DNA from: Octopus vulgaris
Taxonomy: Eukaryota
DNA: 64,000 bases
Assembly (NCBI GenBank): GCA_951406725.2
Contig: OX597816.1
Span: 36,580,001 to 36,644,000 of the forward strand
Direction of reading: 5' to 3'
Part shown: positions 10,400 to 58,192 of the stretch, in pieces
How positions within the stretch are numbered: position 1 is the stretch's first letter
How the letters are laid out: each line of letters begins with the position of its first letter
Made by a program: the position numbers and the translations under genes
The notes under the pieces: generated by a model
The model's input: only the letters and a program-made list of their open reading frames with translations
Databases searched by the model: none
What the model was told of the DNA's origin: nothing

Positions 10400-10828
10400 T
10401 CCTAGAAATCTGGACACCTTTTCCACATCTCCTTAATGGAAAACTGGAAAAGATACCTAGATGATCGTTTCATCATATGGAAAGAATCTCATGAAAATCT
10501 TCTGGAATTCAAAACCACGCTTAACAACATACATCCCAACATTCAATTCACTATGGGAGTCAGCAAACATCATCTCCCTATTCTTGATCTCCTAATTATA
10601 AAAGCACCTCACAACCAAATCAAAACCAACATCTACCACATACCTACAAACTCACAATACTCACAAACTCACAAACTTCCTTTCATGCCACCGAAAACAC
10701 ACCAAGATAAATATCCACTTCAACTTAGTTAAAAGGATTTGCATCATTGTCTCGGACCCAACCATTCGAGAAGTAAGCCTTCAAGACCTCAAAAAAACAA
10801 TATTACAAGGCCAATATCCCTACACAAT
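10400..10828 (+). mobile_element. Penelope-like element RT C-terminal fragment (pseudogenised)
   Basis: WKRYLDDRFIIW..FKTTLNNIHPNIQFTM..LPILDLLI..TNIYHIPTNSQ, then frameshifted SCH.KHTKINIHFNL..RICIIVSD; homologous to 57044-58130. Confidence 0.85.
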
Positions 10829-11462
10829 ATCCCTAGGAAGCATCGAACGCCTCCTGATAGCTTTGACACGGTGTCCCTAGATGCAGTTCCGGCGGCCGGG
10901 GGTGTTTGTCTCCCCTTCGTATATGTATATAAGGACACATGGAAAAAATGTGTCAAAGCTATCAGGAGGCGTTCGATGCTTCCTAGAGCTATACAGCGGT
11001 GGTGTACCCCCTACTGTCACTTTCTTGTTAGATTGACAGTATGCAACCATTCTATCGCCCCACCACCGTACATGTCTCTACGAGAGATTTAGAAATTCAA
11101 TACTTCTTATTTTGATAATCAGTGAATAAACTTCACTGAATATAGGTATATACAATTACGAAGTCGAGGCAAATATCACCAGCTGACCGGTGTCTGCTAC
11201 TCTAGGCCGATGAAAGACAACGATCCTGAAACACAGTGTCCCTAGATGCTGTTCCGGCGGCCGGGGGTGTTTGTCTCCCCTTCGTAGGGGAAAATGTGTC
11301 AAAGCTATCAGGAGGCGTTCGATGTTTCCTAGGGCTATACAGCGGTGGTGTACCCCCTACTGTCACGTTCTTGTTAGATTGACAGTATACAACCATTCTA
11401 TCGCCCCACCACCGTACATGTCTCTACGAGAGATTTAGAAATTCAATATTTCTTATATATAT
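10829..11462 (+). mobile_element. Retrozyme-like cassette A: about 1.6 tandem copies of a 345-365 nt monomer with a short inverted 5' piece
   Basis: gtgtccctagatgc at 10871 recurs at 11236; 10829-10869 is the reverse complement of an internal segment; 3' end runs into (TA)n; contains an HHR. Confidence 0.8.
11201..11246 (+). ncRNA. Type I hammerhead ribozyme, variant core CCGAUGA
   Basis: tctagg-CCGATGA-aagacaacgatcct-GAAA-cacagtg-TC-cctaga; stem I perfect 6 bp and extends to a rod over 11157-11286; GUC cleavage triplet; stem II imperfect. Confidence 0.75.
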
Positions 11463-29768: not shown

Positions 29769-29814
29769 GACACCTGATGAAAGCTGCAGATTACATCAGC
29801 CGAAACGTTGTGTC
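29769..29814 (+). ncRNA. Minimal type I hammerhead (PLE pseudo-LTR type)
   Basis: gacac-CTGATGA-aagctgcagattacatcagcc-GAAA-cg-TT-gtgtc; stem I perfect 5 bp; palindromic AACGTT stem III. Confidence 0.8.
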
Positions 29815-45179: not shown

Positions 45180-45226
45180 GACTTGTATCACCTGTGATTT
45201 CATACCTCTGTATTCATCAGCAAGCC
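45180..45226 (-). ncRNA. Canonical type I hammerhead ribozyme
   Basis: Minus strand ggcttg-CTGATGA-atac agag gtat-GAAA-tcac ag gtga-TA-caagtc; all three stems pair; AUA cleavage site. Confidence 0.9.
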
Positions 45227-54564: not shown

Positions 54565-54741
54565 ATAAATAATTAAAAGGGCGGGCAACATATACATATG
54601 TATGTATGTATATAAATTGGAAGGTTTGGAGATGATGTAGAGGTATCATATATTAGAAGAAATGAGGTACTCAGAAGATCGGATGGGTTATATTTACAGA
54701 TATTTATTTATGTATTACATTTTTTATATATATATCATATC

Positions 54742-54797
54742 ACTTAGATCATTACCGCTTTCTCCCATTCTAGTGGGGTTTTCAAATCCAACTAAGT
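54742..54797 (-). ncRNA. Degenerate minimal hammerhead (U3-A8 core) in the PLE tail
   Basis: Minus strand acttagttggat-TTGAAAA-ccccactagaatggga-GAAA-gcgg-TA-atgatctaagt. Confidence 0.45.
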
Positions 54798-55404
54798 TCC
54801 TGTGTGTGGAATTTTGATCATTTTATAGAGTTTCGTAGTGGTGGGGAGGAATATAAAACAGTACAAGAGGATTATGCGTGAGGAGAAAGTGAGAGAGAGA
54901 ACATGTGTGTATGTGTGTGTGTGTGTGTGTTTGTATCTGGGGTGAGTGCTAAAGAGAAAGAGGGGAAGGGAGAGGGAAGAAGAAGGAAAGAATTTTTTGG
55001 GTCTGCTGGACAGAATATTGACTCCAAGGGGGTTCTAAGGCCTTAGGAAAAAAAAGAAGTTCAGCTTTGGCCACTTCACAGTGTCACTGAGTGTGTGGTG
55101 GCGGGGAGGCAGGCCATAAATTATACTTCCTTTTATCATTGTGAGAACGGTCAAATGCTTTTTTGGGTTTAAGAATTCTTTCCACTTTTTATGTGGAGGT
55201 GTGTGTGTGTCTATGTGCGAGTGTCTGTGTATGTGTGTGTGTGTGTGTGTCCGTGTGCGTTTGTGTGTGTGTGTGCGTGTGTGCGTGTGTGCGTGTGTGT
55301 GTGCGTGCGTGTGAGTGTGTCTGTGCGTTTGGAGAAGGGAAGAGAGAAAAAAAAGAAAAAGAAAAATAAGGGAGGAAGAGGAAAAAATTGTGTTGATATT
55401 TATA

Positions 55405-55889
55405 CCACTATATATATATACATGCTTATACATGAAATATTAGGAAAAAAAACACATTGTTAACAAAATGAACAACTAAATTGCACCATCTTGAAAATTG
55501 TATATCATAGGGAAGTTAAAATTAAAGTGACGATTAAAAAGTAAAGATGAAGTAAATTACAAAAATGATATAATGTATATAACAGGTAATATATATATAC
55601 ACACACACATATATATATATACATATACACACATATACTAAATGTTCTACTATATTAAATTGTAAATCGAAAGATGTGTCCTTCAATGTCACTATATATC
55701 TATACATGCTTATGCATGAAATATTAGAAAATAAACACCTTTTATCGATTCACAATGAACAGTCAAATTACACCATCTTGAAAATTGCATATCATAGGAA
55801 GGTTAAAATTAAAATGATAATTGGCAAGTAAATATTAAGTAAATTACAAAAATAATATAATGTATATAACAGGTAATATATATATATAT

Positions 55890-55927
<38 letters not shown>
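55405..55927. repeat. Diverged ~285-bp tandem duplication in the PLE 3' tail; the second unit is completed at 56933-57028
   Basis: cactatata..catgcttat..aacaggtaatatata at 55407 and 55690; atactaaatgttctac..ccttcaatgt at 55635 and 56974. Confidence 0.8.
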
Positions 55928-55930
<3 letters not shown>

Positions 55931-56099
55931 ACATAAGGGACTAAAGCCATCTGAATATGGCTAGGGACAGGGCAGGGTGGTGGGGGTGTTACTGTTGCAT
56001 TTAGCCCCAGGCGAACATCGACGTCACCAGAAAGGCTCGACACCGTCACGGTGCCCTAAACCTGCAAAGGGAGGTAATTCCCCGATGAAGCGGAAACCA

Positions 56100-56145
56100 C
56101 ACACGGACCATGGTTTCAAGGTGTATTGCCTATCATCGGCGTGTG
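56100..56145 (-). ncRNA. Type I hammerhead, CCGAUGA variant
   Basis: cacacg-CCGATGA-taggcaatacacctt-GAAA-ccatgg-TC-cgtgtg; extended stem I spans 56061-56184. Confidence 0.8.
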
Positions 56146-56459
56146 GTAGGCCTCCGCTTCCTCGACGAATTCTCACTCTGCAGGATTTTCTTATATAGAT
56201 TTTCAAGCAAAATACATTTGCTGATTTCGAAAATCTGTTCGAAAGCAATAATAATTCTCTAAAAGGGATATAGACAGTAACTGCTCGATAACATAAGGGA
56301 CTAAAGCCATCTGAATATGGCTAGGGACAGGGCAGGGTGGTGGGGGTGTTACTGTTGCATTTAGCCCCAGGCGAACATCGACGTCACCAGAAAGGCTCGA
56401 CACCGTCACGGTGCCCTAAACCTGCAAAGGGAGGTAATTCCCCGATGAAGCGGAAACCA

Positions 56460-56505
56460 CACACGGACCATGGTTTCAAGGTGTATTGCCTATCATCGGC
56501 GTGTG
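56460..56505 (-). ncRNA. Type I hammerhead, CCGAUGA variant (copy 2)
   Basis: Identical core, 360 nt from copy 1. Confidence 0.8.
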
Positions 56506-56670
56506 GTAGGCCTCCGCTTCCTCGACTAATTCTCACTCTGCAGGATTTTCTTATATAGATTTTCAAGCAAAATACATTTGCTGTTTCGAAATCAGCAAAT
56601 GTATTTTGCTTGAAAATCTATATAAGAAAATCCTGCAGAGTGAGAATTCGTCGAGGAAGCGGAGGCCTAC

Positions 56671-56716
56671 CACACGCCGATGATAGGCAATACACCTTGA
56701 AACCATGGTCCGTGTG
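56671..56716 (+). ncRNA. Type I hammerhead, CCGAUGA variant (inverted copy)
   Basis: Same motif read directly on the + strand; rod spans 56632-56755. Confidence 0.8.
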
Positions 56717-56931
56717 TGGTTTCCGCTTCATCGGGGAATTACCTCCCTTTGCAGGTTTAGGGCACCGTGACGGTGTCGAGCCTTTCTGGTGACGTCGATG
56801 TTCGCCTGGGGCTAAATGCAACAGTAACACCCCCACCACCCTGCCCTGTCCCTAGCCATATTCAGATGGCTTTAGTCCCTTATGTTATCGAGCAGTTACT
56901 GTCTATATCCCTTTTAGAGAAATTATTATTG

Positions 56932-56976
<45 letters not shown>

Positions 56977-57043
56977 CTAAATGTTCTACTATATTATATT
57001 GTAAATCGAAAGATTTGTCCTTCAATGTATGATGAGTAAAATT

Positions 57044-58130
57044 TCAGCCATTTAATTTGGGGAAGAACTTAGCTATGAAACATTTTTCCATATTCCTCCC
57101 GAAAGAAGTGTCGTTCTTCGGACATTTGTAGAAGGGAAAGATCTTAAATTTTTCTTTCTCCACACGTAGCTAGGTGTGTACTTAGTGGTATTTTGCGTAG
57201 TTCTTCCTGCCGAATATGTTGTCGGTGAATCCTGGCTCGCTGGCACAAAGAATTAGCAGTTTCACCTACGTAATTCTCCTTGTATGTGGGGCAGGTTATG
57301 CAGTATATAACGTTCTGCGTCTTGCAGTTCATACCTGCATTTACTTTGAATACGTAACCACTTTTAAATCTCATCTCTCTGTTTCCCTCTATGTATTTGT
57401 AGGTGGGGTTGCTGCAGATCCCACATCTACCATCTCCGCACTCTTTTGCCAAGAATTCCGTTTTAGTTTCTGAAGAGAATTTCGCTCTTGTTAGATGTTT
57501 CTTTAGGTTTTTGTCCTGTCGTCTACTGTTTTTTATGCTATATTTGTTTAATATGTTTTTCATTTTGGGGCTTTGTAAGGCTATTGGTAGGTTTGAATGT
57601 ATGGTTTGGAAGATGTTGGTAACTCCAGGGTTGTGCGTGTTTATAAAAGGGATAATGTTTTCTTTGTTTTTTGTTTTGGGTGTCCTGAGTTGTGCGATGT
57701 CTAGTTTTAATGCTCTTGTGATTCCATTTTCTATTAGTTTAAGGGAGTATTTTTGCTCTAGGAGCAAGTTTTTGAGTTCATCTAGTCTTATTAGTCGTGT
57801 TTGTGAATCAGTTACTATGCTACATATTCGTCTTGCCATACTATATGGGATGTTTCTTTTTTTGTGGGATGGGTGGCAGGAATGGAAATTTAAATATTGT
57901 TGTGCGTCAGTTTTTTTTTTTGTAGTGGATGTCTGTTGTGACGATGGAGTTGTGTATTTTGATGTTGATGTCTAGGAAGGGAAGTTCGTTGTGGCTGGTA
58001 TCTATTGTGACGTTGATAGATGGGTGCATCGTTTTGAGGATGTTGTGGAATGTTCGTAGATCTTCTTCTGATCTGTTTCAAAAGATGAGGCAGTCATCGA
58101 GGTAGCGTTTCCACTTTTTCTTGATGTCTC
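57044..58130 (-). pseudogene. PLE reverse transcriptase C-terminus plus GIY-YIG endonuclease (frameshifted)
   Basis: KWKRYLDDCLIF, LPFLDI, YLNFHSCHPSHKKRNIPYSMARRICSIV, Cys linker CGDGRCGIC, NVIYCITC..YVGET...R..H; ends FPFYK..EKCFIAKFFPKLNG*; ORF-track entry 57144-57839 is the intact middle. Confidence 0.92.
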
Positions 58131-58192
58131 CTCTGAAGTCGTGTTCGAAGACTTTCCCAATTTCATCGCATATACGAATGTATATATATATA

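Follow-up and report, generated by a model that had tools for sequence, protein, structure and literature searches.

We analysed a 64,000-nt stretch of the Octopus vulgaris genome (GCA_951406725.2, contig OX597816.1, positions 36,580,001 to 36,644,000 of the forward strand; hereafter the window, numbered from its first letter), and confirmed that a cassette at 55928–56933 represents a single insertion of a 360-nt hammerhead repeat that is very young and encodes no protein, namely an animal retrozyme of the type without long terminal repeats (non-LTR). The element belongs to a known class, the retrozymes, and it combines a variant ribozyme core with an unusually clear footprint of insertion by a Penelope-like element (PLE). 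Taken together, the evidence makes it probable that this young retrozyme was written into a (TA)n tract by a borrowed PLE reverse transcriptase (RT), which started from the two DNA ends and copied a single monomer RNA, probably a circle.

The 360-nt period starts at 55928 and shows a single substitution (56167/56527) before the inversion junction. The cassette totals about 2.8 units, divided between a minus-sense arm of 1.82 units (55928–56583) and an inverted, plus-sense arm of 0.97 unit (56584–56933), which bears out the roughly 2.8 near-identical units proposed in an earlier sequence-only reading of this DNA. The head-to-head palindrome described there was also recovered, with inverted arms of 332 nt each (56255–56586 and 56590–56921) at 99% identity around an axis at 56588. 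We numbered the monomer from the first base after the predicted cut (position 1 = window 56465). On this scale the first arm runs from a 5' end at monomer 243 to a 3' end at monomer 178 (site A), and the second, which has one 1-nt insertion close to its end, from monomer 234 to a 3' end at monomer 222 (site B); the inversion junction sits within a local palindrome (monomer 231–243). Each arm meets (TA)n at its outer, 3' end, as the earlier reading had stated, with a (TA)n-rich flank on the left (55876–55927) and a (TA)n flank on the right (56934–56976), but the two 3' ends do not coincide: they are different fixed sites, 44 nt apart. The intervening 44-nt tail (monomer 179–222) has an internal copy in the first arm (56244–56287, minus strand) and closes the second arm (56889–56933, plus strand), and is thus present at one end of the insertion and absent from the other.

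Hammerhead motifs were located at 56100–56145 (minus strand, type I, predicted cut 56106/56105), 56460–56505 (minus strand, predicted cut 56466/56465) and, in the inverted arm, 56671–56716 (plus strand, predicted cut 56710/56711). The two minus-strand cuts had been placed correctly from the outset, and they enclose a monomer of exactly 360 nt (56106–56465, minus strand; GC 47%), the candidate circular RNA. The cassette holds no open reading frame (ORF) of at least 100 aa. The linear monomer folded at -123.3 kcal/mol (z -5.7), a value equalled by 0 of 100 shuffles, and the circular monomer at -116.7 kcal/mol (z -5.1; 60 shuffles). One predicted helix, monomer 111–118/185–192 (56274–56355, minus strand), has its second strand inside the tail, shows an A-U/G-C change between subfamilies and is kept in older families; we regard this modelled helix as a candidate RT-recognition element.

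To place the cassette in its family, we searched the whole genome (2.8 Gb). The DNA search gave 753 candidate sites, the best 40 of which were scored and yielded 220 matches, those listed being 97–100% identical, and an exact 23-mer with the CCGAUGA core of the hammerhead occurred in 808 copies. We studied 53 loci in detail, namely the 40 scored ones (window included) and 13 from the first 100 exact 23-mer matches. Substitutions private to one unit numbered 62 in 87,462 bases (~0.07% divergence), so that the recently active, multi-copy family anticipated earlier is indeed present and the locus is not single-copy. PLE coding sequence was rare in the fetched flanks (2/39 young, 1/41 sister and 1/50 older loci, counting overlapping duplicates) and in no case directly joined to the unit, which shows that the unit is not an ordinary pseudo-LTR attached to an RT reading frame. 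Sister subfamilies with a UUGAUGA or UUGACGA core gave 154 exact matches and are ~90–96% identical to the monomer; a further subfamily with a UUGAUAA core, sampled at 20 loci of 189 matches (CUAG copies), is mostly 84–87% identical. Older families with canonical cores are related as well, since, of 51 such loci, 23 are matched by the monomer profile with E no higher than 0.01; a CAGUAAC/GUUACUG helix, which also covaries, is preserved in these families, and, judged by eye, they seem to end at two sites too. These older families (L072, L073, L076-L078, L082, L085, L087, L088, L192-L221, L236:5078-5317) include both CAUG and CUAG versions of loop III. One older-family 23-mer with a canonical core had 215 exact matches, and the L236 copy appears intermediate between old and young tails.

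The orientation and ends of the insertions were highly regular. Outer 3' ends fell at monomer ~178 (site A, ~176–178) or ~222 (site B), and 5' ends were variable. Among the 53 loci, 37 were divergent and none was convergent, the orientation predicted by priming from both DNA 3' ends. The divergent loci comprised 31 with one A and one B end, one B+B (a 34-nt piece), no A+A and five with one end elsewhere; A+B therefore accounted for 31 of the 32 classifiable loci. The 16 single-orientation loci ended at A (11), at B (4) or elsewhere (1). Genome-wide, (TA)n junctions numbered 750 at site B and 697 at site A, sister subfamilies included, and we tested their pairing on the first 99 A and 100 B junctions listed, covering contig 1 and 120 Mb of contig 2 (~345 Mb). 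The results showed that all 67 junction pairs within 12 kb joined one A to one B in divergent orientation (67/67), with 65 junctions unpaired. The same two ends are shared by sister subfamilies down to ~84% identity. In 37 of 40 loci a (TA)n tract adjoined one or both sides, and target-site duplications (TSDs) are unreadable at most sites for that reason; at non-(TA)n sites they measured 12 and 15 nt (L041, L044). Of 31 two-segment junctions, 24 overlapped by 0–8 nt and 7 carried 1–39 extra nt. In three of four loci of the 177G haplotype, the terminal site-A base reads as target and not as RNA, in line with priming without pairing at that position. Both arms held at least one unit in 20 of the 37 inverted loci and at least two units in 9.

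This footprint resembles that of PLEs, whose insertions are reported to carry a 30–40-bp tail on one end and an inverted 5' copy (10.1101/2021.04.23.441226; PMC3846280). In vitro, a PLE was reported to cut and extend both target strands, with two internal RT start sites bounding the tail (PMC11167929). As a positive control we examined octopus PLEs in the same way: in the active PLE-D family, 10 of 11 inverted loci had the 36-nt tail on one end and not on the other, the remaining locus carrying one complete tail and one partial, and in the PLE-A family the tail was one-ended in both inverted loci seen. We identify the 44-nt stretch between A and B as this PLE tail. The proposal of PLE-type insertion in the earlier reading is upheld by the 67 A+B pairs, the 37 divergent loci of 53, the (TA)n targets and the TSDs. 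Two-site priming of the PLE kind is very likely: as a pattern it is well supported, and the enzyme would be a PLE RT.

The ribozyme itself departs from the standard form. The motif consists of stem I (CACACG/CGUGUG), the core CCGAUGA, a U.U pair with a 3-bp stem II, GAAA, a stem III of 2 bp with a palindromic loop, and GUC; core position 4 is C instead of U (U4C). A UAC bulge in stem I is presumably reminiscent of the tertiary contact in Schistosoma. The motif was intact in 227 of 229 units read, and the same units hold the U4C core. Neither the canonical CUGAUGA in the same 23-mer context nor the looser canonical pattern CUGANGA had any copy genome-wide (0 each). The idea of a foldable type I hammerhead in every copy stands for the motif, found in all three copies and covarying, but not for its details: the core is U4C with U.U, and the active fold is not the predicted minimum, lying 7.4 kcal/mol above it in the circle. 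The suggested check against a Hammerhead_1-type Rfam model turned out negative, with no hammerhead match to the cassette at the gathering score, nor among 40 matches up to E=10; Rfam returned solely hairpin-type matches to the palindrome.

Across 23 aligned rows, 98.7% of cells were paired in the proposed hammerhead structure. At pair 3-8, 14 rows had U-A, 8 had U-G and a single row had C-G; within stem I, one pair switched from C-G to U-A in 3 of the 23 rows; and loop III read CAUG or CUAG (an AU/UA swap), both of which retain the 8-nt palindrome. At the level of sequence comparison, this covariation (C3-G8/U3-A8, stem I, palindromic loop III) supports a hammerhead that is real and under selection. 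The palindrome self-pairs as a duplex at -11.2 kcal/mol, whereas the monomer hairpin is unstable (+2.9), as expected for cleavage as a dimer (PMC4209133). Both U3-A8 and the U.U at the base of stem II are reported as known active variants (PMC3088659). We consider it rather likely that the hammerhead still cleaves in vivo despite U4C.

Other structural readings of the motif were rejected. A viroid-like blocking fold, with the core paired to monomer 7–24, was ~20 kcal/mol worse; an opposite-strand hammerhead was discarded because the antisense motif is without stems I and II and its complement is missing from the most distant subfamily; and a lone canonical-looking core (contig 14) proved to be a junction artefact of a 5'-truncated arm. 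Dating of the sister subfamilies from the identity between arms was confounded by hairpins within the unit itself, which leaves the core variants in an unrooted order. Separately, monomer 18–24 and 7–13 (window 56442–56459) are exact complements of two core strands; it is a speculative suggestion that the CC at core positions 3-4 may derive from fold-back copying of the 7–24 complement.

The nature of the template was assessed from haplotypes and from the 5' ends. Within any one locus, each of seven family single-nucleotide polymorphisms (SNPs) was present in all units or in none, apart from a few mixed loci (L037, L062, L251); the remaining exceptions were a deletion at the site or a terminal base. 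The two arms differed in haplotype in 2 of 36 comparable loci, both by homopolymer indels, compared with a mean of 25.4 disagreements and a minimum of 17 over 5000 permutations. About a dozen haplotypes are nested, each fixed over up to 23 units. The cleavage site was passed exactly in 230 of 233 cases; had the RT jumped from one monomer to another, scars or mixed haplotypes would be expected. Only 2 of 90 5' ends lay within 5 nt of the cleavage site (2.75 expected). A cleaved linear monomer would yield at most 178 or 222 nt, so longer arms need a template extending beyond the cleavage site. The earlier reading had left a circular and a multimeric RNA as alternatives; haplotypes and 5' ends favour a monomeric circle as the template, which would account for all of these observations, and we judge this reasonably likely. 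In public sequencing runs, 20 of the 24 listed hold the stretch, and none is recorded as RNA; contigs of four runs were compared with the monomer. Runs X1 and X5, guessed to be RNA, gave a closed 390-nt unitig identical to the monomer, a form that cannot separate a circle from a tandem, and run X8 contained the exact joint in shorter pieces; the run contigs carry no information on ends, strand or level. The long arrays of L033, L062 and L245 have sub-variants scattered over their units, among which a clustered block in L062 and one L245 unit resemble local micro-inversions within hairpins.

The same PLE two-site priming could instead have copied an uncut linear multimer from a homogeneous donor array, in which case the hammerhead would be weak or dispensable and circles would be by-products. 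We consider this unlikely, although judged from the sequences it would fit most of the data: the U4C core is present in 227 of the 229 units, arrays of 14–15 units exist as donors, the 5' ends disregard the cleavage site, sub-variants recur in both arms in L054 and L062, and unprocessed RNA was reported as the main substrate of an Anolis PLE in vitro (PMC11167929). However, daughters could then never outgrow their donors, and each of the dozen or so nested haplotypes would need a separate passage from monomer to multimer to become fixed in all units. Substitutions at the level of single units are almost never common to loci in partial patterns, and the core, stem I and loop III covary.

Growth of insertions as satellites was considered next, in which each begins with 1–2 units per arm and expands by unequal crossing-over and conversion. 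This model, discussed in 10.64898/2026.07.22.740005, would account for the L033 variants at 5-unit spacing and for the repeated variant block in L062; we regard it as improbable for the family, given 62 singletons and a majority of variants private to one unit, which indicate incomplete homogenisation. At an age of ~0.07%, moreover, 20 of 37 inverted loci already have both arms of at least one unit and 9 both of at least two, and any arm longer than 178 or 222 nt already requires a template continuing past the cleavage site. More doubtful still is an inversion arising from self-primed fold-back cDNA or from L1-type twin priming on a linear RNA. It would explain identical haplotypes in both arms and the window junction within a local palindrome (monomer 231–243), and self-priming has been proposed for PLE palindromes (PMC3846280), but it leaves unexplained that all 67 pairs are A+B, with no A+A or B+B among them. 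In most loci the position at which one arm reaches the junction bears no relation to that of the other, the longer arm can be either of the two, and both target strands were reported to be extended in vitro (PMC11167929). It is hardly credible that misassembly created the palindrome, or that a coding PLE supplied the unit as its ordinary pseudo-LTR: inverted repeats are difficult to assemble and 3 of 40 young loci adjoin a PLE (window, L039, L059), but the arms differ in length and by a fixed 44 nt at their ends, the flanks are unmirrored, TSDs are present and the pattern recurs at dozens of loci, so that the artefact raised as a possibility in the sequence-only reading is largely, if not fully, refuted, and the three PLE neighbours come from two families, with (TA)n between and no sequence in common with the unit.

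Several observations weigh against borrowed PLE priming on a circular monomer released by the hammerhead. Neither cleavage nor a circle was observed. In vitro, U4C reportedly reduces activity considerably, yet it is said to allow viroid infectivity (PMC3088659), and among Xenopus retrozyme dimers cleavage was reported in 1 of 9 and none in 8 of 9 (10.64898/2026.07.22.740005). Two-sided change occurred at just 4 pairs of the proposed structure, a number reached by 54 of 500 shuffles; the 23 rows are mutually related, so these counts are not probabilities and the case hangs on which pairs change. PLE priming in vitro was independent of the hammerhead (PMC11167929). The octopus PLE tails measure ~34 (PLE-A), 36 (PLE-B), 30 (PLE-C) and 36 nt (PLE-D) as against 44 nt in the retrozyme, and the monomer had no homology to any of these four families in the fetched loci, so that no partner was found. 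Sub-variants occur in scattered units of L033, L054 and L062, some of them in both arms, and a family SNP is mixed within L037 and within L251, indicating that DNA-level duplication, conversion or a multimeric template also acted. A fold-back copy, or two RNAs of a single dominant donor, would likewise give both arms the same haplotype. Run X16, whose kind is not on record, gave a closed unitig with two differences, and closed unitigs are also formed by tandem DNA.

The host of the cassette is a broken PLE copy of the Neptune type (54611–58176, minus strand), 5'-truncated and frameshifted, and the insertion occupies a (TA)n tract within the 3' non-coding region of this copy. This host copy has 94% DNA identity to the active PLE-A over 57011–58174, its GIY-YIG match is below the Pfam cut-off, and it has no sequence in common with the cassette. 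Its 3' non-coding part contains a tandem duplication of ~290 nt (55400–55930, 56933–57030; 75–88% identity) that is missing from young PLE-A copies. A decayed PLE RT fragment at 10406–10856 (plus strand) is 43–52% identical to PLE-A, B and C.

We found four active PLE families with many near-identical copies (PLE-A, PLE-B, PLE-C and PLE-D), with frames of 775 aa in A, 781 aa in B and 784 aa in D; no full-length frame was seen for PLE-C. The searches scored the best 40–150 of thousands of candidates, so other PLE families remain. Two apparent partners were rejected: a 46-nt, 78% tail match in L236 belongs to a separate older retrozyme copy ~600 nt past a PLE-C end, with no such match in 39 other PLE-C copies, and a profile match in L121 lies outside the PLE. 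PLE-D has at least 121 copies identical over 186 aa and, in L255-L266, a hammerhead-like motif that lies ~70 nt short of the 3' end and has a core of the U3-A8 kind (UUGAAAA), a 4-bp stem II and a palindromic CCGG stem III; no hammerhead was found in PLE-A. In three active PLE families a long upstream frame overlaps the RT-endonuclease frame by 61–88 nt in the -1 frame (L122, L125-L128 and L130 in PLE-A; L224, L231 and L233 in PLE-B; L255 and L266 in PLE-D; and the host copy). Of the 16 RT frames inspected, 12 had the upstream frame, and in 11 of these an in-frame U_UUU_UUA heptamer was present. We regard the overlap as a candidate site of programmed -1 frameshifting in a type of element described as having a single ORF. 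The heptamer is not followed by a strong stem-loop, and none of the papers listed by one literature search as matching most of its terms mentioned slippery sites.

Further hammerhead-like cores were noted in the window at 29774 (plus strand), at 45220 and 45680 (minus strand) and at ~58450 (minus strand); the 45220 and 45680 cores form a 460-nt direct repeat, which may be another retrozyme or a pseudo-LTR tandem. A separate family of minimal hammerheads with a CUGAAGA core (L070, L074, L075, L079, L084, L086, L089) has a very short stem II with U.U and an identical palindromic stem III, and no ORF attached within the fetched flanks.

Compared with animal non-LTR retrozymes as reported (PMC7229834; 10.64898/2026.07.22.740005), the octopus element shares a non-coding tandem unit (150–450 bp in that class) that has no LTR, primer-binding site or ORF and carries one type I hammerhead, GC below 50%, strong self-pairing, dispersed dimers to multimers, TSDs of more than 4 bp and PLEs in the same genome. 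Mussel retrozyme units, at 350–390 bp, are near the octopus 360, and axolotl HHR_Amex2 likewise has U.U at the base of stem II. Unlike in the retrozymes reported there, the octopus core is never canonical (U4C, or U3 with G8 or A8) and most insertions are inverted with two fixed ends. The main text of PMC7229834 contains none of the words 'inverted', 'microsatellite' or 'cephalopod', and we found no description of tails or inversions in retrozyme insertions there or in 10.64898/2026.07.22.740005. The link to PLEs in 10.64898/2026.07.22.740005 is co-occurrence and pseudo-LTR homology, whereas in octopus it is the insertion footprint, with no pseudo-LTR homology found. Searching the literature on octopus or Penelope-linked hammerhead elements, we found no paper describing the family or pattern, although supplements may list related cephalopod elements.

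With PLE insertions as reported (10.1101/2021.04.23.441226; PMC3846280; PMC11167929), the element shares head-to-head inversion, a one-ended tail, the (TA)n target, variable 5' truncation, two internal RT starts and TSDs of ~10 bp. It differs from them in having no ORF and a tail of 44 nt in place of 30–40 bp, and both of its arms can hold many whole units, which implies a template without a usable 5' end. Chlamys MRC1-type elements (Craig et al. 2021, 10.1101/2021.04.23.441226) reportedly resemble their autonomous partner in the 3'-terminal region and come from a clade described as lacking hammerheads, whereas no partner homology was found for the octopus unit, which has a hammerhead. As natural variants, U3-A8 covariation, the U10.1.U11.1 mismatch and viroid U4C are each reported separately (PMC3088659; PMC4209133), whereas in octopus a single genomic element has amplified subfamilies marked by U3-A8, by U3.G8 and by C3-G8 with U4C.

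On the reading of PLE priming on one monomer RNA, tandem arrays would be transcribed and cut at GUC by hammerheads acting as dimers via the palindromic stem III, and the cut monomers would be ligated into 360-nt circles. The ends and TSDs suggest that a PLE GIY-YIG endonuclease would then cut both (TA)n strands with a stagger of ~10–15 nt. One DNA 3' end would prime at site A (~176–178) and the other at site B (222), a pattern seen in the insertions and assigned here to a putative PLE RT, and each RT may circle the template for 0.2 to ~15 turns. The two cDNAs would be joined head-to-head with a 0–8 nt overlap or a short insert, as the junctions show, or one cDNA alone would survive as a single-orientation array; some long arrays were later rearranged at the DNA level. 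We tentatively extend this scheme, as a possibility that is less likely than not to hold in full: a dimeric PLE RT may copy one 360-nt circle from both break ends by double rolling-circle synthesis, its start sites may lie on a conserved RNA structure that mimics the PLE's own RNA without its sequence, and the weakened cores (U3.G8, U4C) of the most successful lineages may keep the circle closed through a slow, dimer-only ribozyme.

In PMC7229834, the passage from circular RNA to tandem cDNA by a borrowed RT is put forward as a hypothesis, with circles proposed as templates and PLEs as candidate and likely helpers, and something beyond self-pairing is said to be needed to keep circles closed; the PLE route to tandem and inverted insertions was called undefined (10.1101/2021.04.23.441226). 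The octopus family is young and numerous enough for the reaction to be read from the genome, with two start sites, one per DNA end, and one haplotype per insertion. It offers a defined 360-nt substrate, two predicted start nucleotides and four candidate PLE enzyme families for in vitro work, together with a natural series of hammerhead core variants missed by standard models. If true, the double rolling-circle reading would supply the missing proof of the retrozyme life cycle, account for the formation of the inverted repeat and tail of PLEs, and provide a natural circular template for reconstitution.
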